A stretch of 64,000 nt of DNA from an uncultured bacterium (GTDB lineage: Bacteria > Nitrospirota > Nitrospiria > Nitrospirales > Nitrospiraceae), in assembly GCA_965233175.1 (NCBI GenBank), contig CBDDRW010000099.1:1121-65120 (forward strand), in the 5' to 3' direction. How positions within the stretch are numbered: position 1 is the stretch's first letter; every line of letters begins with the position of its first letter. The notes beneath the pieces are model-generated. The model had not been told where the DNA came from and ran no database searches. It saw only the letters and a program-made list of their open reading frames with translations. The position numbers and the translations under genes are program-made. Shown in pieces: positions 2,193 to 47,282 of the stretch.

Positions 2193-2519
2193 ATTGCCCT
2201 CACCAATACGTCCGCGCCACGCTACTGCAGCGCGAGGCTCAATTGCAATCAGGAGGCCGGCATAGTCATACGCCGACCTGCCACTCTTATGGACTCTTCA
2301 GTCTGATCGGACTAGGCTGACACCCACCAAGCCGGTCCCATGCCAACAAGAATGCAAGACCATAAAGACGATGAATGTCAAATAGACTTTTGGCAGGTGA
2401 GGCTACAGAAACATCACGAGATGATATCGGAAGGGATGCCCTCATGACGGAGAAACTATTCGCGAGTACCACCATCACTTCATGGATGGTGGGGACAACG
2501 ATGGCCTGAATGCTCCTCC

Positions 2520-2855
2520 TCAGTCGAACGCGCTGTCCCCGATGTCTGTGAGCCTGTCATGAGAAAATACATTCATTGCCTGACCAACCAATCGAGGTCG
2601 CCCTGCGCGGAGCGCGTTCTTTCGTTGCGGAAAGGGACCTTGACGCAAGGATTCTATCTCCGTCAGGGAAGTCCGAAGGGACTGAGCGATCAGCCATGCG
2701 AGCTTCAAACTAGGGCTCCAATACACAGCATTGCGCAGGCGATCGACTAGATCGCCAGGAAGGCTCACAGTGAGCCGGACCATTCGAGGTTTACGGATCT
2801 TTCGGTGCCCACTCTTAGTCGAATGACTCGAAACGGCCGGATCGGTTCGTAACAT
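2520..2855 (-). CDS. Putative ribbon-helix-helix (ParG/CopG-like) DNA-binding protein
   Basis: MVRLTVSLPGDLVDRLRNAVYW... resembles an RHH N-terminal strand-helix. The tail FPQRKNALRAGRP resembles ParA-stimulating tails. The real start may be the internal Met at 2783. Confidence 0.35.
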   Translation of the reverse strand: MLRTDPAVSSHSTKSGHRKIRKPRMVRLTVSLPGDLVDRLRNAVYWSPSLKLAWLIAQSLRTSLTEIESLRQGPFPQRKNALRAGRPRLVGQAMNVFSHDRLTDIGDSAFD

Positions 2856-3347
2856 AGCGTTTCTCTCCCGGTTATGCTGAAGTGAATAATCTCAGGACTA
2901 TGGCCTCATCTCATGTCGAGCCCGCTTCTCTCAGATTGGGGACCGCGCCGCTACAAGGGCAGGACGCGACCCCGATGGCAGAAGCGTGTGGCGGCGGGAT
3001 GGCTCCGGACGGGCATATCCAGAGGTAGTCCCACCTGAGTGAGAGACATGCGCCTCTTGAGTGGGGACCCACCGGCAGCTCGCTTCGCCAAAAATCGTCC
3101 AGTCTGTATTCATAGCACTCTCGCCCTGATGTCCATGCAAGCAACACCTATACCAAGATTTGTTCAATGTAAATATTCCGCGTCCTATGCTGTAAGTCGT
3201 TGAGCACATGTGGTGAGGCCAGGGAGCCGTTAAGACGAGGCATCGGGCAGGAGAGTATCTAATTCGGTACACTTCGCATTCTGAAAGATACAGGCACAGG
3301 ACAAGGCGGCAGAGGAAAGCGGCTGAAAGTCAGAAATGGAGCGCGAT

Positions 3348-3860
3348 CTATTGGTGAAGATGTTTCATCGCGGCGGCGCAGAGAAGGATGAAGAGACCGA
3401 TCCAGAACGCGGCTTGCTGGAAAGGAATCGCTTCGTAGGATTCTTCTTTGTTTTCTTCTACATCATCGGATTTGAAAAGCACCGAGTAGAGAAAAAGCGT
3501 GAGAAGACAGAGGACGAGAAACAGTTTCACAAAAAAGACTGTCAGATACTTCGCATGGTGCTGGATTCCGCTGCCGGTCTGCGCGGTAATGAGCTGATTG
3601 ACATAGTGGAAATTGATGCCACCGGTAAACAGCAGGATAAGGAGCAGAATACCCGCGACTTTCTTGTAATGCTGATAGAACGCATCGGTGATTGGCTTGA
3701 TCTGCTCCTTGGCCACTGCGTGCTTCAGCCCAGGAGTCACAGCCATGAAAAGAAATGCGACTCCACCGATCCAAATGACCGCTGCAGACAAGTGCACCCA
3801 ATGATTGAGGATTGGAATCAGTGTATTGAGATCTGTGACGAGACTTAGAAGTGCGTCCAT
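3348..3860 (-). CDS. CopD/HemJ-clan integral membrane protein
   Basis: About 4 TM helices. HWVHLSAAVIWIGGVAFLF (His...W-x-GG) is typical of the CopD/UPF0093 clan. The mirror plus-strand ORF 3336..3848 was rejected. Confidence 0.6.
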   Translation of the reverse strand: MDALLSLVTDLNTLIPILNHWVHLSAAVIWIGGVAFLFMAVTPGLKHAVAKEQIKPITDAFYQHYKKVAGILLLILLFTGGINFHYVNQLITAQTGSGIQHHAKYLTVFFVKLFLVLCLLTLFLYSVLFKSDDVEENKEESYEAIPFQQAAFWIGLFILLCAAAMKHLHQ

Positions 3861-3963
3861 TCTGAAGATCGTTAACCGTTATTCGTTGACCGTTAACCGA
3901 AAGTCTGAATCGAATCGGACTTAAATAATATCGCGTTTCACGATTAACGTCTCACGATTAACG

Positions 3964-5349
3964 TCAAAATTTGAAGACCGGGGCATCGTTGCCGAATCGT
4001 TTCTTACGGAGTTCTTCCATCAGCTCGATAGTAATTAAGGGAATGCGGTTCTCGCGTGCGTGCTTTTCAACGCCTTTTTTCACCATGGCGCGCAAGAAAT
4101 AGGGAATTCGGCTGAGCCGTGCCTCTGAATCTTCATCCCACGCCACGGAGCTTTCTTCAGGCGTATTAAATGCGACTTTGATCTTCTCGCCGCCCTTTGG
4201 GGTGTACAGACACCATTGATCTTCGTCCAGCCAGTCGCCGTGATCGACGTAGGGGCGTGCGCGGCAACCACCACAGATATCGGTGTATTCGCAATCGCCG
4301 CACTTACCTTTCAGCTGAGGATAGCGGAAGGAATTGAAGACGTCGGACCTTTCCCATAGATCGACGAAGCTGGTCTCGCGAATATTACCGGCGGACAACG
4401 GCATGTAGGGGCACGGGGTCAACTCGCCGTTAGGGGTCACACGGGCGTAGTTGGTGCCGGCGAGGCAGCCTCCCCCCATATAGCCAGTCGCTTTCGTGAT
4501 CGGAGAATTCGGATCTTTTTCATACGCAAGCCGTTTGAAATGCGGCGCACAGCGGGCTCTGACGAGCATACCTTTGTAATTATCCTGACAATTGACTAGG
4601 TAACCGAGTACCTCTTCGTATTGTGTTGGGGTGATGTCGGTCAGTTCCTCGCCTCGGCCGGTGCAGACCATAAAAAAGACATTGAGCACTTTGGCGCCAA
4701 GTTGGTGCGCCCAATCGATTACCGAGGGCAGCTCCTGGTAATTCATAGGCTGTGCGCTGAAGTGCACTTGGAAAGCCAGCCCGTTCCGCTTACAGGCCTC
4801 GATGCCGGCAAGCGCGGCCTCCCATGCGCCGGGCACGCCTCGGAAACGATTATGTTTCTGAGAGTCGAGTGAATCGATACTGATGCCCATGCCCATCACG
4901 CCGATCTCGACCAAGGTCTTCGCCATTCGATCATCGATCAACATACCGTTGGTTCCGAACACCACCATGAAACCGAGTTTCACGGCATGCCGCGCGATAT
5001 CAAGGATGTCGGGGCGGACAAGTGGTTCGCCGCCCGTGATCACGAGGAGGCAGCCTTTGTTGACCTCAGCAATCTGATCAATCAGCTTGTAACACTCTTC
5101 CGTCGAGAGTTCATCGTCCCCGCCGGCGGATTTCGTCGTCGCATCGAGATAACAGTGGTCGCACTTGAGATTGCAGCGCTTCGTGAGGTTCAGCGCGATG
5201 AGATAGGGCTTGAAGTCATCGACTGTTCGGCCATCGTGCGGCGCAGCAGCCATAGATGGCGGGCTAAAGAACTGCGAGACCTGTTGCTGGATATTGCCGA
5301 ATGCGCCCGCTGCAGACGGGGCATTGAAAATTGGAAGCGATTTACCCAT
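3964..5349 (-). CDS. Radical SAM enzyme with SPASM domain and a C-terminal PCP_red-like module
   Basis: CNLKCDHCY (CxxxCxxC); SPASM cluster motif CGDCEYTDICGGCRARPY. C-terminal VAWDEDSEARLSRIPYFLRAMVKKGVEKHARENRIPLITIE matches the ChlB/BchB C-terminal domain pattern. Confidence 0.88.
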   Translation of the reverse strand: MGKSLPIFNAPSAAGAFGNIQQQVSQFFSPPSMAAAPHDGRTVDDFKPYLIALNLTKRCNLKCDHCYLDATTKSAGGDDELSTEECYKLIDQIAEVNKGCLLVITGGEPLVRPDILDIARHAVKLGFMVVFGTNGMLIDDRMAKTLVEIGVMGMGISIDSLDSQKHNRFRGVPGAWEAALAGIEACKRNGLAFQVHFSAQPMNYQELPSVIDWAHQLGAKVLNVFFMVCTGRGEELTDITPTQYEEVLGYLVNCQDNYKGMLVRARCAPHFKRLAYEKDPNSPITKATGYMGGGCLAGTNYARVTPNGELTPCPYMPLSAGNIRETSFVDLWERSDVFNSFRYPQLKGKCGDCEYTDICGGCRARPYVDHGDWLDEDQWCLYTPKGGEKIKVAFNTPEESSVAWDEDSEARLSRIPYFLRAMVKKGVEKHARENRIPLITIELMEELRKKRFGNDAPVFKF

Positions 5350-5458
5350 AGTTTAGAAGAAATGTGGAATTCTCAATTAGGCGTGGTGACTGTGTGATTC
5401 GGGGAAATTGGCTGTCCGGTCAATTCCCCATTCCACATTCATCATTCAAATTGCAAAG

Positions 5459-7567
5459 TTACGATTTTGTCTTGCCGGTCAGGTTGGCGATCATGTCTTT
5501 CAGGTTTCCGGTTTTCATGGCTTCCGCCATGTAGTCCTTGGCCAGTTCGATGCCCTCATGAGCCACTTCGGCCGTAATGGCCGTGACACCGATCTTATCG
5601 GCATGTTTTTCGATAAGGGCACGCGTACAGTCGCGCATAAACCCTTCAGGAGCTCGTTCGAGCCGTGATTGCGCCTCCGGCGTCCACGTGTAGGAAGCCA
5701 CTGAAGCAGGTTCCACCACGTGGCCGTTCTCCTGACCATTCTCTTGCGAGATCGCCGCTCTGTTGGCGCCATTCGTAGCAGCTGTTACAGTCGCCTTGGC
5801 TTCGGTCGAAGTGCCGGTCCCCTTATTCGCAAAAATAGGCGTGTAGTCCTCTGAGGCTGCCTCCTGAATCATGGGCGCGGCATACTCCAGCGTGATCGTG
5901 GTCATACCGAGCTTACGAGCAGTCTTCTCGATTTTAGCCTTGGCGCGCCGACGTTGGTAGCCGGCTGGGACTGCACGGATTCCATCTTTGGCGTCTTTGG
6001 TCCATTGCATAGGGACATCGTCGTAGGCCAGGTCGGTTTCGAGGACCCCTTCCACATGGGCCGCCGCTTCGAAAAGCTTCTTGTCAACCAGTTTGAAGCG
6101 CTCGCCTCCTGCGGCACAGACCGGGCACTTCACAGGCGTCTCGCCCTTCCCGATGTAGCCACAGCCGTCGCAGACGAAGTAATCCTGAGTCATCCGGTCT
6201 AAATAGGCCTGAGTATTGGCACTCACTTTTGGCTTCTCCTCCACGATCTCAGTCATCATCCCGCTGAGCGTGGAACCCATAAGATCCTTCATCACAGATT
6301 CGTCGGCCTGCATCTTGTTGCGGTCGATGCCGGCGGCATCCAGGCTGCCGCCCAGCGCACGCATCGCATCCATCGCGCCCTTGGGCAGAAGATGTCCCAC
6401 AGCCGTGTCGACGACGGTATTACTGATAATGGTATGGCCCTTCTCGATGGCGTAGCGGTGAATCGCGGTCTTGGCAACGCCTCTGGCAAATACGGGGATC
6501 TTTTCCATCCGGCGGAGGGCTTCCTCAGTCCAGGCAATCGTGTATTCCGCCAACGTATCGATCGGCGGCACATATTTCCGGTTCGACACGAGAATATTAC
6601 AGGGGGCGGACCGCAAGAGATTTTCCGTGTTGCTACCGATGTCCATATCCTCGTCGCTGTGCACGCCGATCCGTCCGACGATCAGCAAGGCTGGGATATC
6701 TTTGCGTACGTATTGAATGATCTTCTCGAAGGCCTTGCCATCCAACAGAGTGGTCTTCACGTCGGTTTGTTCGCCCTGAGCGATTTCACGGCAGATATCC
6801 AGGTGCGACTGATAGATCTTTGCAAGGCCGCTGTCGATAATTTCCTCGTGGAGTTTTTCCTGCTCTTTGAATCGGAACACCTTGCCGGCTTCCTCGTTGA
6901 GGACACCGGAAATACTGTGGAAGGCGGCATAGTGGAAATAGGGATCGAAGGCAGAGATCGCCTCGACCGGCATATTGAATGCTTTGCCCAGCGCCAGGCC
7001 GGTCATAAGGCCGCCGAACGAATAGGGGCTGCCGTCCACCGCCACCACGATTCTTCCGCCGGTCATGGGTTGAGTTTGCTTGATGATCAGCATGTCAGAA
7101 TTCCGCACGCGACGCAGCACGCGCTCGGTGTTGCTGCCGATGACACTGTCCTTCACCGCGCCGACCCCCAAGGCGCCCATGATGACCAGGTCGTAAGCAT
7201 TGGTATTGATGTCTTCGGCCAACACCTTCCAATTCCGACCTTCGAGAGAACGACGCTCGATAGGCAGGTTGTTTTCCGCACATTTCTTATCAACATAGTC
7301 GAGGTAGGAATCGGTGATGATCTGGAGCCCGCGGGTAATCAACGAATCGTGGATTTGGCGCTGCCGGTCGAGTTCTTTTTCATCGTGGTACTCCTCAGGC
7401 AAGCCTGCTTCCATCTGCTTGAAACGCTTGTCGTGCATTTTGGCTGCATAGACGTGGCTCCCCACGATCTTCGAACCAAAGGTTTTGGCAAAATGAACTC
7501 CGACATCGACAGCCGTATTGGAATGGTCGGAATTATCGACCGGTACATAGATCGTCTTATACATCAA
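5459..7567 (-). CDS. Tandem universal-stress-protein (Usp) domains, 3 PCP_red-like modules and a Cys4 zinc ribbon
   Basis: Usp 1 spans aa 1-165 and Usp 2 aa 170-330 (VPVDNSDHS..., VAVDGSPYS..., GSNTE motifs). PCP_red-like W-T-x-E/D-A modules lie at about aa 344-390, 520-568 and 626-675. Zinc ribbon is CDGCG...CPVC at aa 466-484. Confidence 0.85.
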   Translation of the reverse strand: MMYKTIYVPVDNSDHSNTAVDVGVHFAKTFGSKIVGSHVYAAKMHDKRFKQMEAGLPEEYHDEKELDRQRQIHDSLITRGLQIITDSYLDYVDKKCAENNLPIERRSLEGRNWKVLAEDINTNAYDLVIMGALGVGAVKDSVIGSNTERVLRRVRNSDMLIIKQTQPMTGGRIVVAVDGSPYSFGGLMTGLALGKAFNMPVEAISAFDPYFHYAAFHSISGVLNEEAGKVFRFKEQEKLHEEIIDSGLAKIYQSHLDICREIAQGEQTDVKTTLLDGKAFEKIIQYVRKDIPALLIVGRIGVHSDEDMDIGSNTENLLRSAPCNILVSNRKYVPPIDTLAEYTIAWTEEALRRMEKIPVFARGVAKTAIHRYAIEKGHTIISNTVVDTAVGHLLPKGAMDAMRALGGSLDAAGIDRNKMQADESVMKDLMGSTLSGMMTEIVEEKPKVSANTQAYLDRMTQDYFVCDGCGYIGKGETPVKCPVCAAGGERFKLVDKKLFEAAAHVEGVLETDLAYDDVPMQWTKDAKDGIRAVPAGYQRRRAKAKIEKTARKLGMTTITLEYAAPMIQEAASEDYTPIFANKGTGTSTEAKATVTAATNGANRAAISQENGQENGHVVEPASVASYTWTPEAQSRLERAPEGFMRDCTRALIEKHADKIGVTAITAEVAHEGIELAKDYMAEAMKTGNLKDMIANLTGKTKS

Positions 7568-7720
7568 AGTGTCTCCTCAGGATGCCCTTCAGGCAGGGCG
7601 AACGAGAGTAATTATGAAAATTTCCAAACGGTTGACGTGCTTTCCACGTCTCAAAGAACGTGTATGCTAGCACCGGTCTGAATTCGAATGCAAGGTATCG
7701 ATGCAGGCAGCAGAACGACG

Positions 7721-9349
7721 TTATGATGCGGGGGTAACAACAGATCGTTCACCTGGATCATTTGCGGAGCGAATCGATTGTCGGGAGCGGAGGATCTCTT
7801 CCAAAGATAAGAGCGCATCGCGTCCGGAGTTCCCCTCAATCCCTCGAATCAAATTCTTGTCGGCGTATTGGCCCGATTCTTTCGGGGCTTGAGAGAGGGA
7901 TCCCGTCCACTTTCGTGGGTCCCTGCTTCCCTCTTTACGCTCCCAGGCACGGAGGCAGGCCTTGGCGATAAATGAGTTCAGCGGTGCCGGGTTATACAAG
8001 AGCTTCCTGATACTCGTCGGAGTCAGCATCAGGGGATTATAGCCGGCTGAGAGGTACCCTTCTTCCAATAGCCGTTGTTCCAGATCGGTATTCGGCTGAA
8101 TGCCTAAAAAGAACATGAGGGGAAAGACTCGCTCCTCACCCAGGATTGAGGCAACTTTTTTATAGGACTCCACGCTTTGGAGCAGAGACTCCTCGGTTTC
8201 TTTCGGGCTGTTCAAAGAGTAGTTGAGAATGACCTTGCCTTTGAATCCGGCTTCCGCCAGATAGCGGCAACCATCGTATAGCCGCTCAAGCTTGAATCCC
8301 ATATGGAGGTCGTTCAACACCATTTGGGAGCCCGACGTAATAGCGACCTCAAGATCGCCGACGCCGGACCGGACCATGAGTTTGGCCAACTCTGGGGTGA
8401 TCAGCGACGTCCTGATATAGCCGGACCATTCGATCTCCAGCTTCTCTGCGAGAATCCGTTCAAGGATCTCGGTGCATTGGGGATAGGCTTCTTTCCCGGT
8501 AATAAACTGGGCATCCGTGAACCAGAACCGCCTGGCACCCCATTGATGGTAGTGCTGAGAGATATCCTTGACGACCATGGAAGGTGGCCGATAGCGGACT
8601 CGCTTCCCTTCGATGTAGGGATAGAGACAGAACGCGCAGTCGTACGGGCAACCTCGCTTCGATTGGACCCCGATGGATTCGTCCAGATACTCTCGATGTT
8701 GCGGGAAAATCGAGGTCAGGTAGGGTAAATCGACAGTCAGCGCATCAAGCAGAGCCGGCGAGCCCTGCTGGCCCTTTCGAATGGTCTTCCCTTCCCGAAG
8801 AATGTAGCGTTCGTTCTCCAGCGACTGGCCTTCTATGACTTTGAGAATCGCGTCTTCCCCTTCACCAAGAATCCCAATGGTGCCTTCCGGAAGCTTCAGA
8901 ATGAGCTGATCGGCAAACGCGGTAAAGGCCCCGCCACCGATCATGATTTGCGCCTTCGGAAACTCCTTCGCGATCAACCAGGGATAGGAAAGCGCTGCCC
9001 GGATATGGCTGTAGTAACGATAGAGCTGCTTCACCCCCGCAAACGAGGCGGCAACCCGCTTGAGTGGATTGCTAGCAAAGTAGAAATTAAACGCGTGTTC
9101 CAACGAGGAGTCTCCCTCGTGCGGGGAAAAGATCTGAATGTCGCGCCAGGAGAAACAGACGAGGTCCGGTTTGAACTCGGTCGTCGCATCGCGAACCGCA
9201 CTGAGCCGATGGCCATCGGGGAAAAGCGACAGGTCAATAATGCGCTGCCGCACGTCCGGCTTGCGTCGATGAATAAAATCAGCGAGATAGGTTGCCCCGA
9301 TGGGGTAGACCTTCTTGCATGGGAGAAAAATATATAGAATCGATTCCAT
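7721..9349 (-). CDS. Class B (B12-binding-domain type) radical SAM enzyme, BchE-like architecture
   Basis: SKRGCPYDCAFCLYP (CxxxCxxC) follows a Rossmann-like N-terminal domain of about 230 aa; 542 aa. Confidence 0.82.
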   Translation of the reverse strand: MESILYIFLPCKKVYPIGATYLADFIHRRKPDVRQRIIDLSLFPDGHRLSAVRDATTEFKPDLVCFSWRDIQIFSPHEGDSSLEHAFNFYFASNPLKRVAASFAGVKQLYRYYSHIRAALSYPWLIAKEFPKAQIMIGGGAFTAFADQLILKLPEGTIGILGEGEDAILKVIEGQSLENERYILREGKTIRKGQQGSPALLDALTVDLPYLTSIFPQHREYLDESIGVQSKRGCPYDCAFCLYPYIEGKRVRYRPPSMVVKDISQHYHQWGARRFWFTDAQFITGKEAYPQCTEILERILAEKLEIEWSGYIRTSLITPELAKLMVRSGVGDLEVAITSGSQMVLNDLHMGFKLERLYDGCRYLAEAGFKGKVILNYSLNSPKETEESLLQSVESYKKVASILGEERVFPLMFFLGIQPNTDLEQRLLEEGYLSAGYNPLMLTPTSIRKLLYNPAPLNSFIAKACLRAWERKEGSRDPRKWTGSLSQAPKESGQYADKNLIRGIEGNSGRDALLSLEEILRSRQSIRSANDPGERSVVTPAS

Positions 9350-9423
9350 CGCGTTCTCAGTTAGACGTTCTCAGTTCTGAGTTCCGAACAACTCAGAACT
9401 CAAGACTCAGAACTAGGCACTGG

Positions 9424-10197
9424 CTATTTGGTGGCTACATGGATCGCCACGATCCCGCCGCTCAGATTTCGATACATCACCTGACGATAGCCTACGTCGA
9501 GGAGCATCTGTTTCAAGCGTTCCTGATCCGGGAAGTTCCGAATGGAGGCCGGAAGATATTCGTACACGCCGGTCGTGTCATGCGCTACTTTTGTGCCGAC
9601 CCAGGGAAGAAGCCGGAACGAATACCAATCGTATAGAGCCCGCAGCCACCCAAAGATCGGTCGGGAAAACTCCAGGCACACAAACCGCCCGCCTGGTTGC
9701 AAAATTCGGTGAATATCCGTGAGCGCTTGCCGAAGATTACCCACATTCCTCATACAAAACCCTGTCGTCACAGCATGAAACGTCCCATCGGGAAATCCCA
9801 GATGTTCGGCATTGGCTTCGAGGCAGGTAATCTTCTGTCCCAGGCCCCGCACGGTGACTTTCTTCAGGCCTTCGACCAGCATGGCATGGTTCAGATCGGA
9901 GGCAATGACGCGGCCATTGGTCCCCATGCGCGGTTCGACCAACAGCGCGAGATCGGCTGTGCCGGATCCGACGTCGAGCGCCCTGCCTCCCGTAGTGACG
10001 GGTACATAGGAGGCGGTAATCTTCTTCCATCGGTAGTGGAGTCCAAAGCTCAGGAGCGTGTTGTTGAGGTCGTAGACGCTAGCGATCGACGTAAACATCC
10101 GCTGAACGGCTTGTTCACGGGCCGAGCCAGTCCAAGTCGAGACGGCTTGGGCCGGAGGCGTGGCTGATGAAACCGGGGGTTCTTCAAGCTTGAGCAT
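9424..10197 (-). CDS. ubiE: Demethylmenaquinone/ubiquinone C-methyltransferase
   Basis: UbiE signature YDLNNTLLSFGLHYRWKK; SAM motif ALDVGSGTADLA. Confidence 0.9.
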   Translation of the reverse strand: MLKLEEPPVSSATPPAQAVSTWTGSAREQAVQRMFTSIASVYDLNNTLLSFGLHYRWKKITASYVPVTTGGRALDVGSGTADLALLVEPRMGTNGRVIASDLNHAMLVEGLKKVTVRGLGQKITCLEANAEHLGFPDGTFHAVTTGFCMRNVGNLRQALTDIHRILQPGGRFVCLEFSRPIFGWLRALYDWYSFRLLPWVGTKVAHDTTGVYEYLPASIRNFPDQERLKQMLLDVGYRQVMYRNLSGGIVAIHVATK

Positions 10198-10301
10198 GCC
10201 GCGATGGTTGCACTCGCTTCAACGTGTTGTCAAGCATGGATTCGCCTGCCTAGAGTCGCCTGCCGCTTGGTGAATGTGAAGACCTCTGACAGGAAACATT
10301 C

Positions 10302-11717
10302 TTGGCGAATCAAAGGATGAAAATCCTTGTTACTGTTAGGAAAAACGATTATAGGTGCTTCCAGAATATGGCACGCAGATTTTTTCGCTCTTCCATACAA
10401 GAACTAGAAGCGTTGTGTAAGGAGAAACACAACAACGTCGATTTTCTTCTTGTGTTGGAAGAAGAGCTGAGCCATCGGAAAACTGAGCGTGCAGCAAGAT
10501 TACGCAATCAGATCAAGGAGAGACTTGCGGTATTGAGACCCGGAACACCCTCGCGAGAGCAGGTTTCTGCAGAACCACCGCCACCTCAATCATCTCAGCA
10601 TCAATCGGTTCCTCACCCGCACGAAAAGCAAGAGCCGTCCCACCCTCATCCGCTTCGCCCTGAGAATCCTGTTGTAGGCCTACCCTCCGGGGGTAAGGGA
10701 GAGCCTCCGCCGCTGCCACCAATTACTAACAGACCGGACGATGTTCTTTCGGCATGGACAGCACTGGAAGTCCTTTCGCCACCTACCTACGTCGGGTCCG
10801 AAGACTTAGCTGGAGGTGATAAGAGAAGAGTCTCCACTCTAAACGAGCAGTCTCTTCCGTGGGAGCGAGGTGAGAAGTCACGGCCGAATCAACGTCTTTA
10901 CTATCAGGTCGTTCTCGGCTCCATAAAAATGGGATCAGCGATAGGCCGTCTCATCGAACGATATGGTGACAGTCGCGAGGAGAGGCCAGGGGTTCGTGGG
11001 AAAGCGGTTCTTGCTATCATTGTGGTTAATCGCCAGGGCCAGCTCGTTGAGTCGCCAGCAGTTGGGATTTCTAGCTTCGGCTGGGGCGTAATGTCCGCGC
11101 TAAACGGCGAGTTGGCAGACCTTGGGCGATGGCCAGACGTTGAATCACCGTTGGTTGATCGAACCGAGAAGCTCCTTCTCGGAATAGTGCCGGGAGATGA
11201 AGACAGAGAGGAACATCGAGCACGTCCACTTACACGAGCGGCGCTGTTTGCCGCATACGAGGCACTTGTCCATGAACTGGGTTTGCCAAGGGAATGGGTC
11301 GAGCCAGCGGAGTTTGCAATTCGTTCATACGTCTATTTCAAAGATCCTAACCCACCAGAGCCTCTTTTACTCAATAGCTTCTTTCTCGCCGACCTCGCGC
11401 TCGCTCAAAAGCTATTCGCAGCAGGCAAAGCGCCACAGAATCTCCGACGTTATCTCGGCGTCGAACGTCCACAGCACCGTCGGGATTTGTTGCACGATAC
11501 CGCCGCATTGGCAGAAGCTGTTAGCCCAGGTTTCACCAATCCCTCACGCTGGCCTGGCATAGGCCGTTCCCCGCTAGTATTACTTCAGCAAGCAGCCGTC
11601 AACCTGTCATTCCGAGAAACGAAGACTGGTGGGTTGCTCGGTATCAATGGGCCACCTGGCACTGGAAAGACGACGTTGCTTCGAGATCTGGTTGCCGGAG
11701 TGGTTACTGAAAGCTGA
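10302..11717 (+). CDS. SF1 (Upf1/DNA2-like) helicase, N-terminal segment: unknown 450-aa region plus Walker A; ends at a frameshift
   Basis: The ORF ends 17 codons after GPPGTGKTTLL, so a Walker A motif has no helicase core behind it in this frame. TTG start per ORF track; ATG alternatives at 10317 and 10368. Confidence 0.75.
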   Translation: MANQRMKILVTVRKNDYRCFQNMARRFFRSSIQELEALCKEKHNNVDFLLVLEEELSHRKTERAARLRNQIKERLAVLRPGTPSREQVSAEPPPPQSSQHQSVPHPHEKQEPSHPHPLRPENPVVGLPSGGKGEPPPLPPITNRPDDVLSAWTALEVLSPPTYVGSEDLAGGDKRRVSTLNEQSLPWERGEKSRPNQRLYYQVVLGSIKMGSAIGRLIERYGDSREERPGVRGKAVLAIIVVNRQGQLVESPAVGISSFGWGVMSALNGELADLGRWPDVESPLVDRTEKLLLGIVPGDEDREEHRARPLTRAALFAAYEALVHELGLPREWVEPAEFAIRSYVYFKDPNPPEPLLLNSFFLADLALAQKLFAAGKAPQNLRRYLGVERPQHRRDLLHDTAALAEAVSPGFTNPSRWPGIGRSPLVLLQQAAVNLSFRETKTGGLLGINGPPGTGKTTLLRDLVAGVVTES

Positions 11718-13902
11718 AGTAATGGCTAAATTCGACGATCCAGAGACTGCATTCGAGCATTCTGGAGAAAAACTCAAGGCTGGTGCGAGCTGGATTCATC
11801 TCTATCGGCTGAATCCAACATTGCGTGGGTTCGAGATGGTCGTGGCATCATCAAACAACAAAGCTGTCGAGAACGTGAGCGCAGAGCTTCCGAGCCTTAG
11901 TGCCATTGCAAATGACGCCCAGGAGCTGCGCTACTTCAAGACGCTGTCTGACGCAATGCATCAATCTGATACCTGGGGAGCTATTGCCGCTGTATTAGGC
12001 AATATGCAGAATCGCAGCCGATTCAAGCAGGTCTTTTGGTGGGACGACGACAACGGACTTAGCAACTACTTACGAGCTGCAACGGGTTCAGCCAAAGACA
12101 TAGAAATAACCGATCCAGAAACAGGGCATGTCGATCATCGAACACCACGCATTGTCGAAGCAGAACAGCCTCCATCTAGCCGAGAGGAAGCCCTCGAACG
12201 GTGGAAGAGCACCCGGAAGCGATTTCTGAAGGCGTTGGGCGAAAGCCGCCGCCAGCAAACATGGTTAGAGGGCCTTTACGCCGAGTTAAAACGAGTGCCT
12301 GAGTTGGCTCAGGGGGAAGCGAGCACCAAAGCGCAATTTGATGCTGCAATAAAAACCGTCCAACAACACAAAGATGCGGAATCGATAGCGCAGCAGGCAG
12401 AAACCGAAGCAGGGCATCAGCTTGAATATACAGACCAAGAGCTTCGCGCGCATGGCTTGGCAAAGCCGGGATTTTGTGCGCGATTGTTCAGAACACGCCT
12501 TGCACGCGAATGGTCAGACAAGTTGACATCTCTTCGCGCCAATCATCGCGGAGCGAAGATGCAACACACAAAAACAACTGCGGAGCGCCAGCGCATCAAA
12601 GATGAACTCCGTCCGGCGGTGCTCGAACAACAGAACGCCGAAACTGCCTGGCAAGCGGCTTGCGCACAACATCAGCAGGCGAAGCAACGACTTGTTGAGG
12701 CTCAGGAGCAGGGGGTTATCCTTGCAGATGATGCGTTCTTCTCGGCAGAGCACGGCAAGCGGCACCAAGTAACACCGTGGTTTTCTCCATCTGCCCAACG
12801 CCTGCGTGACGAGGTTTTCATTTCCGCGATGGCGATGCACCGTGCTTTTATTGACGCAGCTGCCAAGCCCTTGCGTCACAACCTCGGAGCCTTGATGAAT
12901 GTGTTCACGACACAGACGCTGCAAGGCCATGAGAAACAGGCGTTGCTACCGGATTTGTGGGCCTCACTTTTCCTTGTGGTGCCATTGATCTCAACTACAT
13001 TTGCATCTGTCAACCGAATGCTAGGCAAGTTGCCACCTGAAAGTCTCGGCTGGTTGTTTGTGGATGAGGCTGGCCAAGCATTGCCGCAAGCTGCGGTTGG
13101 CGCACTCTTGCGAACTCGCCGAGCCGTTGTTGTTGGCGACCCTGTTCAGATTGAGCCAGTGGTTGCGCTTCCTGATACATTGACACAGGCCGTCTGTCGC
13201 CGCTTTGGTGTAGACCCTGACCACTATTCGGCCCCATCAGCTTCAGCACAAGCCCTCGCTGACTCTGCGTCCTCCTACACCACTGAGTTCCAAACCCATG
13301 TCGGCAGTCGGAATGTCGGTGTGCCGTTGTTAGTACATCGCCGATGTTCAGAACCGATGTTCAGTATCTCCAACACGATAGCTTACTCCGGGCTGATGGT
13401 GTCTGCAAAATTGTCGAAGCCATCTGCCATTCGTGATGTGCTTGGTCCCTCTGCATGGATTCACGTCGAAGGCAGCGGTGAGGATAAGTGGTGCCGAGAG
13501 GAAGGCGACGAAGTTCTGCGCATGCTCCATCAATTAAAGCAAATGGGTGTAAAACCAGACCTATATGTCATCACACCTTTCGTCATTGTCGCAGACCGAT
13601 TACGCCAAACGATACGTGAGAGTGATGTGCTCGGAGGATGGGTCAGTGATGATGAATGGCACTGGATCAACGAGCGAATTGGTACCGTGCATACCGCACA
13701 AGGACGTGAAGCTGAAGCGGTCATTCTTGTACTAGGAGCACCGCACCCAACACAAACCGGCGCTCGTGGTTGGGCTGGTGGCCGGCCGAATTTACTGAAC
13801 GTAGCCGTCACACGCGCAAAGGAAACTATTTACGTTGTCGGCAACCGGCAGCTTTGGCGTGAGGCCGGTTTATTCAGAGAACTTTATAGGCGGCTTCCAT
13901 GA
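11713..13902 (+). CDS. SF1 (Upf1/DNA2-like) helicase, C-terminal segment: motifs Ia to VI
   Basis: VASSNNKAVENV (Ia), FVDEAGQA (II), VVGDPVQIEP (III), TVHTAQGREAEAVI (V), NVAVTRAKETIYVVG (VI). The frame continues from the previous ORF if one A of the run at 11710-11712 is removed. Confidence 0.88.
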   Translation, partial: AEVMAKFDDPETAFEHSGEKLKAGASWIHLYRLNPTLRGFEMVVASSNNKAVENVSAELPSLSAIANDAQELRYFKTLSDAMHQSDTWGAIAAVLGNMQNRSRFKQVFWWDDDNGLSNYLRAATGSAKDIEITDPETGHVDHRTPRIVEAEQPPSSREEALERWKSTRKRFLKALGESRRQQTWLEGLYAELKRVPELAQGEASTKAQFDAAIKTVQQHKDAESIAQQAETEAGHQLEYTDQELRAHGLAKPGFCARLFRTRLAREWSDKLTSLRANHRGAKMQHTKTTAERQRIKDELRPAVLEQQNAETAWQAACAQHQQAKQRLVEAQEQGVILADDAFFSAEHGKRHQVTPWFSPSAQRLRDEVFISAMAMHRAFIDAAAKPLRHNLGALMNVFTTQTLQGHEKQALLPDLWASLFLVVPLISTTFASVNRMLGKLPPESLGWLFVDEAGQALPQAAVGALLRTRRAVVVGDPVQIEPVVALPDTLTQAVCRRFGVDPDHYSAPSASAQALADSASSYTTEFQTHVGSRNVGVPLLVHRRCSEPMFSISNTIAYSGLMVSAKLSKPSAIRDVLGPSAWIHVEGSGEDKWCREEGDEVLRMLHQLKQMGVKPDLYVITPFVIVADRLRQTIRESDVLGGWVSDDEWHWINERIGTVHTAQGREAEAVILVLGAPHPTQTGARGWAGGRPNLLNVAVTRAKETIYVVGNRQLWREAGLFRELYRRLP

Positions 13903-13992
13903 AGCAAATTCCTGTGAACGCGGATTGCTCGGTCAGAGTTAAACTGAGACCCACGTGACTTCTGTACACCCACTGTAGTCTAAGCCCCATGT

Positions 13993-13998
13993 TATAAT
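13993..13998 (+). promoter_or_regulatory. Candidate -10 box (TATAAT) inside a conserved 17-mer CATGTTATAATCCCGCC
   Basis: Perfect TATAAT lies 79 nt upstream of the ATG at 14077. The same 17-mer (16/17 identical) recurs at 15088-15104. Confidence 0.4.
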
Positions 13999-14076
13999 CC
14001 CGCCCGTCCGCGAGACTGATTTGAGAGTGCCCTAGATCTAAACGGACCCTAATAGGCTGAGCAAGGAGGTAGTTCC

Positions 14077-14994
14077 ATGTTTGGTTCCCTCGCGATTGAA
14101 ATTTCGATCAGCCTTTCGCTGCTTTATCTCTTGTTAGGGTTGATGTGCTCCGTTCTGAACGAATGGGTGGCCGGTGTCCTGAATATGCGAGCGAAGAATC
14201 TCTGGGACGGTGTGCGGAATTTATTGTATGACTCGGAGGGAACAGGACTGGCCAAACAGTTGTACGACCATGCTCTGGTCAAGAATTTGGGAAAAGCCGG
14301 CGCGCTCCCCTCGTATGTTCCTTCTCGGAACTTCGCGTTAGCACTGTTCGACCTGGTTGCCCCGGTGAAGGACTCGACAACCACGAGAACGATACAGGAT
14401 ATTCGGAATGCGATCGCCGATATTCCAAATCCACAAGTCAAAAGCGCACTGGTCGCCTTGATTGACGAAGCTGGAGACGACCTCAAAAAGGCGCGGGAGA
14501 ACGTGGAGCGATGGTATGACGACGCAATGGATCGTGTGTCCGGGTGGTATAAGAGAAAAACCCAGGTCTTCATCCTGCTATGGGCACTCGCGGTGACCTT
14601 GTCGGTTAATGCCGATACGATCTTAATCGCGAATACGCTCGCTCATGACGCCACATTGCGCGCGTCATTGGTTGCAATGGCAGAGGCGACGGCCAAAGAG
14701 CCGCTGCCTCAGGATGCTAAGGGAACGACGGAACGAGTCCAGCAGATGTCTTCCGAGATTAAGAAATTGGGGCTTCCAATTGGATGGTCCTCTGACGCCA
14801 AAGACCCGACGTCTGTTCCTGCTGGGATCGGAGGGTGGGCACTCAAGATTATCGGTCTATCGCTTACGGCGATTGCTGTTTCTCTTGGGGCCCCATTTTG
14901 GTTCGATGTCTTGAATAAACTGATCAATATTCGTTCTGCCGGCAAACAGCCGGAGAAAGCGCATCACGAAAAAGACCCGGCCAGTAATAAATAG
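14077..14994 (+). CDS. Integral membrane protein, function unknown
   Basis: Strong SD (AAGGAGG) 7 nt upstream. TM segments lie at the N-terminus, at about aa 165-190 and about aa 255-285 (GAPFWFDVLNKL). Confidence 0.65.
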   Translation: MFGSLAIEISISLSLLYLLLGLMCSVLNEWVAGVLNMRAKNLWDGVRNLLYDSEGTGLAKQLYDHALVKNLGKAGALPSYVPSRNFALALFDLVAPVKDSTTTRTIQDIRNAIADIPNPQVKSALVALIDEAGDDLKKARENVERWYDDAMDRVSGWYKRKTQVFILLWALAVTLSVNADTILIANTLAHDATLRASLVAMAEATAKEPLPQDAKGTTERVQQMSSEIKKLGLPIGWSSDAKDPTSVPAGIGGWALKIIGLSLTAIAVSLGAPFWFDVLNKLINIRSAGKQPEKAHHEKDPASNK

Positions 14995-15092
14995 TTCACG
15001 AGTTAGAAACTTTTTCGCCATAAGACTGCGAATAACGCCTCTTTATCCAAAGTTCATTTTGGTGTGTCCTCCGCTCCTAGATTCTCACATGC

Positions 15093-42375: not shown

Positions 42376-44274
42376 TTATAAGAATAAGAACATCGTCACA
42401 AGGACGACTGCCCCCAGCGCCATGCCAAGTGCATAATGTTGCGCCTGCCCGCTTTGCATGAGCCTCAAGAGCCACCCTCCCCAAGCGATCGCGCGGGCCA
42501 CGCCGTTCACCGCACCGTCGACCACGTTCACATCCACACGCTTCCATAGCTCGGTTGCGACATACAACGTGGGGCGGACGATTGTGCGATCGTACGCCTC
42601 GTCGACATACCACTTATTCAGGGAGGCTCGATACAACGACTGCCACTGTCGAGCGAATCGATCCGGTAGCGTGGGGTTGAGCACGTAGACATAATAGGCG
42701 CCGGCGATTCCGAGTAATCCCATGGCCGTCGCCACGACCATGATGCTGACGCCGACTCCTCCCTCATGAGCGACTCCGCCTGCGTGGGTTTCGAACATCG
42801 GTCCAAGAAAATCCGGAATGCCCAGATAGCCTGTTGCGATGCTGAGAATGGCAAGAATGATCAGCGGAAGAGTCATCGTCGTTGGAGATTCATGGATGTG
42901 GCCTGCATGATGAGGGTCGACATGCGAGGGACCCCAAAACGTGACGAAGACCAGCCGGAAGCTGTAGAACGCCGTCATCAACGCCGTTACGAGGCCCAAG
43001 ATCGTCAACCATTGACCGAGCGGTCCAGCCGACCAGGCCGAGATCAGCAAATCGTCCTTGCTGAAGAACCCGGACGTCAGGGGAAATCCTGCAAGGGCGA
43101 GCGAGCCCACGACAAATGTCCAATAGGTGACCGGCAATTTGTCCTTCAGCCCTCCCATGCGTTGCATGTCCTGTTCATGATGCAGGGCAATGATGACGGA
43201 CCCGCAACCAAGGAACAGGAGGGCTTTGAATGCGCCGTGGGTCAGGAGATGGTACATGCCGGATGCATAGGCGCCGAGCCCACATGCCATGATCATGTAC
43301 CCGAGTTGGCTGACCGTGGAGTACGCCACCACACGTTTGATATCGGTCTGGGTTAAGGCGATGGTCGCCCCCACGACCATGGTCACGCCTCCGGTAAGCG
43401 CCACCACCGTCATGGCGGTGGGAGACAGATTATAGAGTGGCGCCAAGCGTGCAACCATGAACACGCCCGCCGTGACCATTGTCGCCGCATGAATAAGCGC
43501 CGAGATAGGGGTAGGGCCTTCCATCGCATCAGGTAACCAGACATGGAGCGGCACTTGAGCCGATTTGCCGATCGCACCCGTGAACAAGAGTAGACAGATG
43601 AGTGTGAGAACGGAGACGTCCCATGTTCCCCCAAATGGTCCGAGAATATTCATCACGTCGCCGGCAGATTCGTGCGCACGAGGGAAAATTTCCTGGTAGT
43701 CAAACGATCCGAAGCTGTACCAGACCAAGAGGAGCCCGAGCATGAAGCCGAAGTCGCCGATGCGGTTGACGAGGAACGCCTTCGTGGCCGCAGCACAGGC
43801 AGTCGGACGATCGTACCAGTGGCCGATGAGCAAATAGGAACAGAGTCCGACGGCTTCCCAAAAAATGAAGAGTTGCAGCAAGTTGTCGGCCATCACCAAC
43901 ATCAGCATCGAGAAGGTAAAGAGGGCGATATAGCTGAAGAAACGGGCATAGCCAGGATCTTCGCGCATGTATCCGATGGTATAGATATGGACGAGAGAGC
44001 TGACGGTCGTGACGAGGAGCAGCATCACAGCGGTGAGTCGGTCGATAGAGAAGCCGATGTGAATATCGAGGATGCCGGAGGTCAACCAGGTGTAAAGTGG
44101 GAAGCTCGTCTGGTGGCCGTTCGCGACGTCGAAAAAGACCAAGAGCGAGAGGAGCCACGATACGAGGACAGCCGGAACCGCGACGAGATGGGCATTGTCC
44201 TTGATCCAATGGCCGAAAAGCCCGAGTATCAGGAACGAGACTAGTGGAAGAAGCGGAATGAATTCGTACGTCAT
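42376..44274 (-). CDS. nuoL: NADH-quinone oxidoreductase subunit L
   Basis: 632 aa; WLPDAMEGPTPISALIHAATMV; C-terminal lateral-helix region. Confidence 0.93.
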   Translation of the reverse strand: MTYEFIPLLPLVSFLILGLFGHWIKDNAHLVAVPAVLVSWLLSLLVFFDVANGHQTSFPLYTWLTSGILDIHIGFSIDRLTAVMLLLVTTVSSLVHIYTIGYMREDPGYARFFSYIALFTFSMLMLVMADNLLQLFIFWEAVGLCSYLLIGHWYDRPTACAAATKAFLVNRIGDFGFMLGLLLVWYSFGSFDYQEIFPRAHESAGDVMNILGPFGGTWDVSVLTLICLLLFTGAIGKSAQVPLHVWLPDAMEGPTPISALIHAATMVTAGVFMVARLAPLYNLSPTAMTVVALTGGVTMVVGATIALTQTDIKRVVAYSTVSQLGYMIMACGLGAYASGMYHLLTHGAFKALLFLGCGSVIIALHHEQDMQRMGGLKDKLPVTYWTFVVGSLALAGFPLTSGFFSKDDLLISAWSAGPLGQWLTILGLVTALMTAFYSFRLVFVTFWGPSHVDPHHAGHIHESPTTMTLPLIILAILSIATGYLGIPDFLGPMFETHAGGVAHEGGVGVSIMVVATAMGLLGIAGAYYVYVLNPTLPDRFARQWQSLYRASLNKWYVDEAYDRTIVRPTLYVATELWKRVDVNVVDGAVNGVARAIAWGGWLLRLMQSGQAQHYALGMALGAVVLVTMFLFL

Positions 44275-44390
44275 CTAGGAGTCGTCTCTCGTCGTTCGGT
44301 CCTCGCGAAGCGCTGCAAATGAGAAGTGTCCCACTACACACAATCCGTCAGTCACGAACGACGCTTCACGTTTCACGACAGACGGTTTCT

Positions 44391-44693
44391 TTACCATTTC
44401 AGTAATTGAAATTCGTCGATGTTGATTGCAGATCTGGCGCGGTACAAGGCAATGATGATGGCCAATCCGACCGCGACCTCTGCGGCGGCAACCGTGAGGG
44501 CAAAGAAGACAAAGACTTGCCCTGCGACGTCGTGGAAATACTGTGAAAAGGCGACAAAATTAATATTCGTCGCATTCAACATGAGTTCGACGGACAACAA
44601 GATGATGATGATGTTCCGGCGAAGGAGGACCCCGACGAATCCGGTCAGGAACACGATACCACTGAGAATTAAATAATAACTTAGAGGAACCAT
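44391..44693 (-). CDS. nuoK: NADH-quinone oxidoreductase subunit K
   Basis: 100 aa, 3 TM; [14 protein letters not shown]. Confidence 0.92.
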
Positions 44694-44752
44694 GCGATAC
44701 TCACTTATGATTTTTCACTGTTCAATTCCGGTCATCACTGAACAGTGACCGT

Positions 44753-45262
44753 TCAACACTCGCCGATGTCTTTTTTGGCAAGCATGATCGCGCCAATCAT
44801 CGCGACGAGCAAGATTAGGGACGCCACCTCGAACGGAAACAAATAGGTGGAGTAGAGCACGTCCCCTATCGCTCCAGCATTGGTCGTCCCCCCTACAGTC
44901 GTCTCTGCGCCGGTTGCCACGACAGGAGCTTTCCAACCTTTCATCACCGTGAGAATAATGGCTTCAATGATCAGGGTCGCCCCCACGACGCCTGCCATAG
45001 GCCATTGCCGATGGTAGCGATCGTCTTGCCGCAGATTGAGCAGCATCACGACAAAGAGATAGAGGACCAAGATGGCGCCGGCATACACGATGACTTGAAC
45101 GGCCGCAAGGAACTCCGCGTGAAGCGTGACGTAGAGCCCCGCCACGTGAAAAAACATGATCAGCAATGCCAGCGCGCTGTAAACGGGATTGCGCAGCGCA
45201 ACGACCAGCACCGATGCCGCCGCAATCACGAACGCAAAATAGAAAAAGAATACCTGCTCCAT
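44753..45262 (-). CDS. nuoJ: NADH-quinone oxidoreductase subunit J
   Basis: 169 aa; NPVYSAL and VQVIVYAGAI motifs. Confidence 0.9.
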   Translation of the reverse strand: MEQVFFFYFAFVIAAASVLVVALRNPVYSALALLIMFFHVAGLYVTLHAEFLAAVQVIVYAGAILVLYLFVVMLLNLRQDDRYHRQWPMAGVVGATLIIEAIILTVMKGWKAPVVATGAETTVGGTTNAGAIGDVLYSTYLFPFEVASLILLVAMIGAIMLAKKDIGEC

Positions 45263-45370
45263 GTACGCCTCTTTCTCTATGCCTTAGGAGCCTGCCGGCC
45301 CCACAGTCCGTGGCGCGTCCCACGACGTGGCTCGAAACGGCGAGCCCTTCGAACCGTGAACATGGGCAAT

Positions 45371-45910: not shown

Positions 45911-46018
45911 GATGATCCGGTCCGTGTCTTCTGTCTGTTTATTCGCCGCTCTTGTGTATCTCGTTGATTTCGATGTCTGTGTCTCTTACCTCAAAACGAA
46001 CGGCGCGCACAGATCGCC

Positions 46019-46136: not shown

Positions 46137-46138
46137 TG

Positions 46139-47263: not shown

Positions 47264-47282
47264 ACCATAGATCTTCGCCTAA

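Follow-up and report, generated by a model that had tools for sequence, protein, structure and literature searches.

A five-gene cluster of Nitrospira read as two neighbouring respiratory-cofactor modules, one for a quinone and one probably for heme

We analysed a 64,000-nt stretch of DNA from an uncultured bacterium of the Nitrospiraceae (the window) and within it a cluster of five successive minus-strand genes at positions 3348-10197. They encode a UbiE-like methyltransferase, two radical SAM (rSAM) enzymes, a protein that combines Usp and PCP_red domains, and a small membrane protein. The original prediction, made from the sequence by a model, took the five for a single cofactor-tailoring pathway with no characterised members. 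We lean towards a different reading, in which two respiratory-cofactor modules became neighbours in the Nitrospira lineage: a quinone module (module a, 7721-10197) and a probable heme module (module b, 3348-7567). That the modules are separate is the firmer part, and we hold it with good confidence. The single-pathway reading fails because one gene, mpqE, is already known, because the modules part outside the relatives of Nitrospira, and because a gap of at least 136 bp with a promoter-like element for module b lies between them. Each module is a variant of a kind of system already known, and neither is a categorically new pathway. The features of the locus are as follows.

9424-10197, minus strand: mpqE, a UbiE/MenG family methyltransferase gene, 257 aa (NF052510 and Pfam Ubie_methyltran)
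7721-9349, minus strand: Slr0320-like, class-B-type rSAM gene, 542 aa (CX3CX2C and NF045585 match)
7664-7693, minus strand: promoter-like element before the Usp-PCP_red gene (cross-species alignment and pattern scan)
5459-7567, minus strand: Usp-PCP_red gene, 702 aa (Pfam Usp, PCP_red and RUBY_RBDX)
3964-5349, minus strand: AhbD-like SPASM-PCP_red gene, 461 aa (Pfam Radical_SAM, SPASM and PCP_red)
3348-3860, minus strand: CopD-clan membrane protein gene, 170 aa (four hydrophobic segments, family-level CopD/DUF4149 match)

The listing of open reading frames (ORFs) has the five genes adjoining at the positions first described, and a motif search recovers every motif that had been quoted. The domain identities proposed at the outset also stand, with Pfam matches over the gathering score for Ubie_methyltran, Radical_SAM (twice), SPASM, Usp and PCP_red; the four PCP_red copies are all above threshold, three in the Usp protein and one on the SPASM enzyme. 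The claim that no member is characterised applies to most of the genes. It fails for the UbiE-like gene, which passes the model for MpqE, an enzyme verified by experiment, and through MpqE the cluster has orthologues in a characterised quinone operon, a finding that had been named beforehand as speaking against a new pathway. A plus-strand 170-aa ORF at 3336-3848 mirrors the CopD-like gene and is an artefact, as homology backs the minus-strand frame only. An Rfam scan of positions 2500-11000 (E<=1) found no riboswitch or other RNA element. The window proteins share 88-98% identity with their counterparts in Nitrospira and in Nitrospiraceae metagenome-assembled genomes (MAGs).

Gene order across genomes separates the modules. 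Species-representative genomes were scanned with an alignment of the SPASM-PCP_red protein, the loci found were searched by tblastn with the five window proteins, and context was read over about 20 kb around the matches (loci are numbered L below). The full set of five is syntenic in no fewer than 19 Nitrospira-type species-level loci, and likewise in many metagenome contigs. Synteny across phyla, named in the original prediction as a check on one pathway, therefore divides: the five-gene order is limited to Nitrospira relatives, but the core of module b recurs in other phyla. Elsewhere the cluster is split into the mpqE-rSAM pair and a Usp-PCP_red/SPASM-PCP_red module with or without the CopD-like gene. 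Nine other Nitrospirales loci (L020-L022, L024, L026-L029, L041) have only the Usp-PCP_red, SPASM-PCP_red and CopD-like genes, with neither mpqE nor the rSAM gene found within 10 kb of module b; upstream of the Usp-PCP_red gene, in divergent orientation, are metK and ahcY. Conversely, module b is absent from at least 4.9 kb after the rSAM gene in eight loci from a metagenome scan with the rSAM family alignment (L107, L109, L112, L118, L121, L126, L130, L138).

Beyond Nitrospirota, the Usp-PCP_red and SPASM-PCP_red genes also occur as a pair in Gammaproteobacteria, Hyphomicrobiales, SAR324 and Rhodothermales, and the pair is kept in Gallionella, Sulfuricellaceae and other Proteobacteria. Brocadia has a single fusion protein with three PCP_red copies on the rSAM enzyme itself, and a zetaproteobacterium has a separate protein with three copies. 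The early suggestion that PCP_red is shared by partner proteins thus finds support in such partners across phyla. In other Nitrospirales (L020-L029, L041) the downstream side has the der GTPase gene and a gene for a small cytochrome c; the metK and ahcY genes mentioned above encode S-adenosylmethionine (SAM) synthetase and S-adenosylhomocysteine hydrolase.

Spacing between neighbouring genes shows the same division.

mpqE to rSAM: 81 loci, minimum -4 bp, median 70 bp, 25 within 20 bp
rSAM to Usp-PCP_red: 67 loci, minimum 136 bp, median 162 bp, 0 within 20 bp
Usp-PCP_red to SPASM-PCP_red: 62 loci, minimum -8 bp, median 4.5 bp, 35 within 20 bp
SPASM-PCP_red to CopD-like: 63 loci, minimum -4 bp, median 70 bp, 12 within 20 bp

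The rSAM-Usp gap holds the pattern TTGCAT-N16-TGnTAnnAT, invariant across Nitrospira loci and followed by a GGAGG ribosome-binding site (alignment A4). Its -35 hexamer occupies window positions 7693-7688 and its -10 hexamer 7669-7664. Of 84 loci, 57 have the pattern 106-152 nt ahead of the Usp-PCP_red start, including three-gene Nitrospirales loci with metK upstream, and it has only 60 matches in total over 2.2 Mb of locus sequence. A generic promoter/terminator scan did not flag it; that scan gave fewer promoter-like sites than in shuffled sequence and no convincing intergenic terminators. By these computational calls module b carries a promoter-like element of its own, from which it would be transcribed. 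The element predates the juxtaposition with mpqE-rSAM, as it is also found in loci without that pair, where metK is upstream. Read-through transcription from mpqE-rSAM into module b may occur.

The identity of the first gene anchors module a. The 257-aa protein scores 400.8 bits against the MpqE model NF052510 (cutoff 335), with residues 25-257 on profile positions 2-234 of 234; it also passes PF01209 Ubie_methyltran (224.4 bits, cutoff 20.1) and TIGR01934 for UbiE/MenG (218.9 bits, cutoff 158.35). By these matches it is very probably MpqE, the C2-methyltransferase of methyl-plastoquinone (mPQ) synthesis. This quinone, with which aerobic Nitrospirota respire, was described in 2025 (Elling et al. 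2025, PMC11874023). In E. coli, three other Nitrospirota orthologues, including that of M. noduliformans, were verified to methylate plastoquinol at C2, giving methyl-plastoquinol (PMC11874023), and the window enzyme would likewise methylate ring C2.

The published mPQ gene set comprises mpqA, B, C, D, X, Q and E, and its proteins were found in Nitrospirota only (PMC11874023). Nitrospira and Leptospirillum lack the decarboxylases MpqD/X, and a C1-hydroxylase is not known (PMC11874023); the mPQ hydroxylase is still given as unidentified in a later paper (PMC12998194). MpqQ, the C5/C6 methylase, is restricted to a subset of aerobic Nitrospirota, and methionine is the source of all three mPQ methyl groups (PMC11874023). 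Leptospirillum has a cluster mpqA-mpqC-'cobalamin-binding radical SAM methyltransferase'-mpqE, in which the rSAM enzyme was given no step; in other Nitrospirota the mpq genes were stated as not co-localised (PMC11874023). As in Leptospirillum, a B12-type rSAM gene adjoins mpqE in the window, but mpqA and mpqC are missing from the cluster; the Leptospirillum enzyme (LFE_2124) may be orthologous to the window rSAM. Against the published layout, the mpqE-rSAM pair is widely conserved outside Leptospirillum.

The second gene of module a belongs to a small family. The 542-aa protein has CPYDCAFC at residues 234-241, with the CX3CX2C cysteines C234, C238 and C241, and its Pfam Radical_SAM match (54.2 bits) is above the gathering score. 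Its best NCBIfam match is NF045585 (rSAM_slr0320; 437.6 bits, residues 2-473), and its best NCBIfam relatives are all B12-binding rSAM families. The B12 label of the original prediction is nevertheless weaker than it was stated: the B12-binding domain PF02310 itself is sub-threshold. The specific kinship with BchE that had been suggested does not hold, since TIGR02026 gives 41.8 bits against a cutoff of 481. A search of 1.84 billion representative proteins returned 62 representative clusters at E<=1e-30, mostly fragments. About ten relatives are full length (32-55% identity), among them cyanobacterial Slr0320 and one sequence each from a Nitrospirota MAG, Thermodesulfobacteriota and Omnitrophota.

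Neighbouring genes tie this family to prenylated quinones. The rSAM gene adjoins mpqE in at least 19 Nitrospira species-level genomes. In many metagenome loci, with rSAM proteins 44-77% identical to that of the window and a GC content of 36-71%, an MpqE-type gene lies directly upstream. The UbiE-like partners in eight divergent pairs (L108, L109, L112, L118, L119, L121, L130, L138) all score over the MpqE cutoff (8/8, 348-400 bits). In a sister clade, a UbiA-family prenyltransferase gene lies directly downstream of the rSAM gene in 16/16 loci (L089, L093-L106, L170); NCBIfam gives no specificity assignment for this prenyltransferase. The sister-clade loci are peat and soil metagenome contigs, with a GC content of 57-63% in the three checked.

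The closest named relative is Slr0320 of Synechocystis PCC 6803, an rSAM protein of photosystem II high-light acclimation. Homology is full length (residues 2-473) and the architecture is the same, but identity is 37-38% and the match of 437.6 bits stays below the 775-bit equivalog cutoff, hence a separate clade; a genuine cyanobacterial Slr0320 (P0367) scores 1063 bits. Knockout of slr0320 gives a phenotype at the plastoquinone acceptor side of photosystem II, with slower QA- to QB electron transfer under high light, and its authors speculated on plastoquinone methylation (PMC8065906). In the cyanobacterial plastoquinone (PQ) route the decarboxylase and hydroxylase are assigned (PMC11874023, PMC12998194), and the methylase is called uncertain or redundant (PMC12998194).

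Taken together, gene neighbourhoods and homology suggest that the rSAM family probably works in prenyl-benzoquinone biosynthesis, and the window enzyme in mPQ synthesis. A narrower assignment, as a C-methylase most likely of ring C5/C6, is tentative and somewhat doubtful. It is the most economical one because the methylase is the uncertain step in cyanobacteria, MpqQ is patchy in Nitrospirota and the methyls come from methionine. The enzyme would then supply the open step in Nitrospira, C5/C6 ring methylation where MpqQ is absent, using SAM-derived methyl groups delivered via cobalamin. In methylating the ring of a respiratory quinone it would resemble MenK, MqnK and MenK2 of menaquinone synthesis. 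Those are class C (HemN-like) rSAM enzymes without a cobalamin domain, and their sequences show no relation to that of the class-B-type protein.

Several observations weigh against this assignment. Besides the missed Slr0320 cutoff, PF02310 reaches 26.2 bits against a gathering score of 32.1 and covers residues 126-169 only, and some B12-type rSAM enzymes are not methylases. No quinone gene lies near the rSAM gene in four family members (L086, L110, L111, L125). The neighbours of a cyanobacterial copy and of a Nitrospirota copy at 55% identity are uninformative, and there are no quinone genes by the cyanobacterial copies. Distant Omnitrophota-like homologues occur in clusters of several seemingly unrelated B12-rSAM genes, and these copies were set aside as a different system. 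Two such contigs (L090, L091) have relatives at 30-33% identity; their clusters comprise three to five genes for B12-binding rSAM proteins, together with NAD-dependent epimerases and a Peptidase_U32 protein, a family that we take to be that of the oxygen-independent UbiU/UbiV hydroxylases.

Module b opens with the 702-aa Usp-PCP_red protein. Its order is two Usp domains, one PCP_red, a rubredoxin-like zinc ribbon and two further PCP_red. The Usp match (PF00582, 106.6 bits, two stretches) is above threshold, and G-x2-G-x9-G-S occurs at residues 131 and 298, once per Usp domain; we take this (G-x2-G-x9-G-S/T) to be the Usp ATP-binding motif. PCP_red (PF08369) matches in three stretches starting at residues 346, 522 and 628 (105.9 bits, E 1e-30, gathering score 32.5). 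The original prediction had missed the Usp motifs and the rubredoxin-like domain (RUBY_RBDX, CxxC...CxxC, residues 464-492, with CxxC at 466 and 481). The rubredoxin-like domain is present in the Usp proteins of Nitrospirota, L085, SAR324 and Rhodothermales and absent from those of the HemY-type proteobacterial loci described below.

PCP_red is the C-terminal domain of ChlB/BchB, a subunit of dark-operative protochlorophyllide oxidoreductase (DPOR). The likeness lies in the 45-residue helical module, of which the four copies here exceed the Pfam threshold. Unlike in DPOR, there is no nitrogenase-like NB-protein core, and in non-phototrophs the module comes joined to Usp, rubredoxin-like and rSAM domains. 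The Usp-PCP_red protein is the presumed partner or carrier of the SPASM enzyme. PCP_red helices on both would dock the two proteins or cap a tetrapyrrole, as the homologous BchB C-terminus does.

The SPASM enzyme, of 461 aa, passes the gathering scores of Radical_SAM and SPASM (41.3 bits for the latter) and ends in a PCP_red domain at residues 404-448 (53.5 bits, E 2.5e-14). It has CNLKCDHC at residues 59-66 and CGDCEYTDICGGC at residues 350-362. The rSAM cysteines C59, C63 and C66 are invariant in the family, as are C267, C295, C313, C350, C353, C359, C362 and C380, which correspond to two auxiliary [4Fe-4S] clusters as in AhbD (alignment A1). The protein aligns end to end with NirJ2 (TIGR04055, 329.8 bits) and AhbD (TIGR04545, 312.9 bits). 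Both names stand for one radical SAM heme b synthase, which decarboxylates coproheme (Fe-coproporphyrin III) in the siroheme-dependent route and in some coproporphyrin-dependent ones. The link to tetrapyrrole enzymes that had been drawn for the SPASM enzyme and PCP_red is thereby upheld, with AhbD/NirJ2 as the nearest families.

A neighbour-joining tree of the rSAM/SPASM cores, without support values, groups AhbC-like paralogues, canonical AhbD/NirJ2 without PCP_red, and a PCP_red-bearing clade, monophyletic and sister to AhbD/NirJ2. The window clade thus resembles AhbD/NirJ2 in its rSAM and SPASM core, its auxiliary-cluster cysteines, its place in the tree and its coupling to HemY-type genes in Proteobacteria. 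What sets it apart are the PCP_red domains at its C-terminus, from one to three in number, a separate partner protein with several PCP_red copies (usually with Usp domains) in most lineages, the extra copies being fused in Brocadia, and the lack of AhbA/B/C nearby. A literature search found nothing joining PCP_red with radical SAM, or anammox with AhbD; on Nitrospira with AhbD or coproporphyrin, it found nothing on Nitrospira heme synthesis.

The third gene of module b differs between lineages. In six proteobacterial loci (L036, L040, L081, L082, L083, L092), and not in Nitrospira, the Usp-PCP_red and SPASM-PCP_red genes are followed by a flavin amine-oxidase (HemY-type) gene at spacings from a 4-nt overlap to 87 bp. 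The proteins of L036, L081, L082 and L083 pass the protoporphyrinogen oxidase model TIGR00562 (230-251 bits, cutoff 97.85); that of L040 was classed by clustering with L036 and that of L092 by Pfam Amino_oxidase. L081 is a Gallionella locus and L092 is from Sulfuricellaceae. Nitrospirota and two further lineages (L032, L085) have the CopD-like gene instead, whose start overlaps or abuts the SPASM stop in several lineages.

The 170-aa CopD-like protein has four hydrophobic segments, predicted to be transmembrane helices, with an invariant His23 in the first. Residues invariant in its family are W21, H23, G32, G33, P43, T79, G80, G81, N83, Y105, K112, P146, F147 and K166. The CopD/HemJ label first given to it survives at clan level for CopD. 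The window protein is below cutoff for PF05425 CopD (21.8 bits, cutoff 32.1) and NF033808 CopD (27.6 bits, cutoff 195), but CopD and DUF4149 match 11/12 family members (best E 3e-7), which supports clan-level relatedness only. HemJ too is a small membrane protein of four helices, the first of which carries a heme-binding His. HemY, HemG and HemJ are non-homologous enzymes for one step, the oxidation of protoporphyrinogen or coproporphyrinogen, and the CopD-like gene sits in the operon slot that the HemY-type gene has in the six proteobacterial loci. This position suggests, speculatively, non-orthologous displacement or a role as membrane electron acceptor. The CopD-like protein would then replace the HemY-type porphyrinogen oxidase, as an analogous oxidase or as an electron acceptor in the membrane; that it is itself a porphyrinogen oxidase we consider unlikely.

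Other surroundings of module b vary more. In loci of Gallionella/Sulfuricellaceae type (L081, L083, L092) and of SAR324 (L045) the operon sits in recurring islands, where a multi-heme cytochrome c bearing an EB_dh domain is accompanied by further cytochrome c genes. A beta-propeller (Lactonase/nos_propeller) protein of 584-585 aa is encoded as well in L081, L083 and L092. A bd-like oxidase subunit I occurs in L083 and, weakly, in L045, cytochrome b in L081 and L092, and CcmH in L083. In Rhodothermales (L042:6477-7214) and SAR324 (L045:11284-12210) a soluble domain of about 245 aa without Pfam or NCBIfam match follows the SPASM gene, fused in SAR324 to a C-terminal PCP_red; it is a third kind of partner beside the HemY-type and CopD-like proteins. 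L084 encodes a SPASM-PCP_red protein 58% identical to that of the window, then a hemerythrin (9326-9757), with no adjacent Usp-PCP_red gene and with V-type ATPase and NiFe hydrogenase genes nearby.

Module b is most likely a variant terminal heme synthesis module acting on an iron tetrapyrrole, because a HemY-type oxidase and an AhbD-like decarboxylase would be two of the three terminal steps of the coproporphyrin route. For the SPASM enzyme on its own, the balance tips slightly towards a role on coproheme or heme, and we propose a variant coproheme decarboxylase (heme b synthase). It would oxidatively decarboxylate two propionates of Fe-coproporphyrin III to give heme b.

Some findings sit uneasily with a heme role. 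The 461-aa protein misses the AhbD and NirJ2 cutoffs (500 bits each), which control sequences clear: a deltaproteobacterial AhbD (L047) at 581.9 bits, with AhbC (654.8 bits) adjacent, and a Syntrophomonas NirJ2 (L056) at 589.5 bits. The sub-cutoff score is compatible with AhbD activity because a methanogen sequence that falls in the AhbD/NirJ2 clade, and has a paralogue some 1 kb downstream, likewise reaches only 362-386 bits. None of AhbA, AhbB and AhbC lies near any member of the PCP_red clade in the stretches around the loci; according to a recent review, AhbD occurs without the remaining Ahb pathway in organisms on the coproporphyrin-dependent route (PMC13564367). An AlphaFold model of the SPASM enzyme has moderate confidence (mean predicted local distance difference test, pLDDT, 65.5) and matches in Foldseek only generic SPASM enzymes, silent on substrate. 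The PDB contains no AhbD structure, the best sequence match there being PqqE (6.9e-18). The rubredoxin-like domain was ruled out as a universal electron acceptor, since the Usp proteins of the HemY-type proteobacterial loci do without it. Kinship of the CopD-like protein with HemJ was likewise rejected: PF03653 is unmatched in 12/12 members even at E<=10, and there is no solved relative.

The most direct challenge to separate modules is that all five genes make mPQ, with module b performing prenyl-4-hydroxybenzoate decarboxylation and C1 hydroxylation by oxygen-independent radical chemistry at the membrane. The five genes do adjoin in at least 19 Nitrospira genomes and many metagenome contigs, the published route is without a decarboxylase (MpqD/X) and a UbiH-type hydroxylase in Nitrospira and Leptospirillum (PMC11874023), AhbD chemistry is an oxidative decarboxylation, and a lipid substrate would fit a small membrane protein. 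Yet module b occurs in Gallionella, Sulfuricellaceae, other Proteobacteria, SAR324, Rhodothermales and Brocadia, outside the sole phylum with mPQ proteins (PMC11874023), and six proteobacterial loci have a HemY-type oxidase gene coupled with it. It lies away from mpqE in the nine other Nitrospirales loci, divergent mpqE-rSAM pairs lack it, the promoter-like element and the gap divide the two, and its nearest families and PCP_red domain come from tetrapyrrole enzymes. We therefore judge this improbable, and slightly more so the full scheme in which the AhbD-like enzyme, Usp-PCP_red and CopD-like proteins perform decarboxylation and/or C1-hydroxylation and the Slr0320-like rSAM adds the C5/C6 methyls. 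If true, such cooperation would mean that a high-potential quinone is made largely by radical chemistry. The opposite merger, in which the B12-type rSAM belongs to module b and acts on a tetrapyrrole like BchE and the bacteriochlorophyll C-methylases, its adjacency to mpqE being incidental, is very improbable. Its gene does lie between mpqE and the Usp-PCP_red gene in Nitrospira, and several class-B rSAM enzymes modify tetrapyrroles. Where the modules separate, though, the gene stays with mpqE, and module b copies in Proteobacteria, SAR324 and Rhodothermales have no such rSAM; the prenyltransferase pairing of the sister clade, the low BchE score and the promoter-like element downstream of the rSAM gene point the same way.

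Within module b, tailoring or delivery of a tetrapyrrole for one class of respiratory protein (e.g. bd-like oxidases or EB_dh-type cytochromes), or synthesis of a modified heme, is a serious alternative to bulk heme b synthesis, if an unlikely one. In its favour is the setting of the module in the proteobacterial and SAR324 islands, with genes for cytochromes c and b, EB_dh, bd-like oxidase subunit I and CcmH around it. Proteobacteria usually already own a protoporphyrin-dependent heme pathway, and a second terminal route would be redundant in them; the PCP_red clade is distinct from genuine AhbD and below its cutoff, and multi-copy PCP_red proteins resemble carriers more than enzymes. What speaks for heme synthesis instead is the pairing of HemY-type and AhbD-like enzymes; moreover, in Nitrospira no cytochrome genes stand beside module b, and the operon has no candidate for an extra modifying activity. 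We give hardly any credence to the SPASM enzyme being a maturase of ribosomally synthesized and post-translationally modified peptides (RiPPs), with PCP_red recognising a peptide or protein substrate. Its nearest solved structures are indeed peptide-modifying SPASM enzymes (PqqE, SuiB, SkfB, anSME), but these neighbours are generic and an AhbD structure is absent from the PDB. Intergenic gaps of about 100 bp are too short for a precursor peptide gene, and the AhbD/NirJ2 models give about 313-330 bits against about 145 or less for any peptide maturase.

Part of this picture is already known, namely MpqE and the rSAM gene beside mpqE in Leptospirillum (PMC11874023). New are the conservation of the mpqE-rSAM pair far beyond Leptospirillum, the homology of its rSAM enzyme to Slr0320 with the pairing of the sister clade with a UbiA-family prenyltransferase, and the recognition of the other three genes as an independent, cross-phylum AhbD-like/PCP_red module, of which we found no description in the searchable literature.

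Two other regions of the window were noted. Related Nitrospira loci have uvrA directly and divergently beside mpqE; in the window about 4.8 kb is inserted there (10198-15063), with three plus-strand ORFs. Those at 10302-11717 (471 aa) and 14077-14994 (305 aa) have no family match, and that at 11629-13902 (757 aa) has weak matches to superfamily 1 (SF1) helicases, including IGHMBP2 and Hhe anti-phage. The insert may be a small mobile or defence island. At 42376-54852, minus strand, a run of ORFs resembles a nuo operon (NADH:quinone oxidoreductase) by size and N-terminal sequence only; if so, its product would use the quinone made by module a.

The mPQ pathway in Nitrospira is without enzymes for several steps, and the ring methylase of cyanobacterial plastoquinone is likewise unsettled. 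Conservation of the gene pair, the prenyltransferase sister clade and the slr0320 phenotype jointly single out one small protein family as a candidate. The module b operon, with its HemY-type or CopD-like third gene, is widespread in cytochrome-rich chemolithoautotrophs, among them Nitrospira, Gallionella, Sulfuricellaceae, SAR324 and anammox bacteria. Should it complete heme synthesis, the terminal steps would have a variant that has gone unrecognised, possibly with a new kind of porphyrinogen oxidase and with a role for the ChlB C-terminal domain outside photosynthesis.

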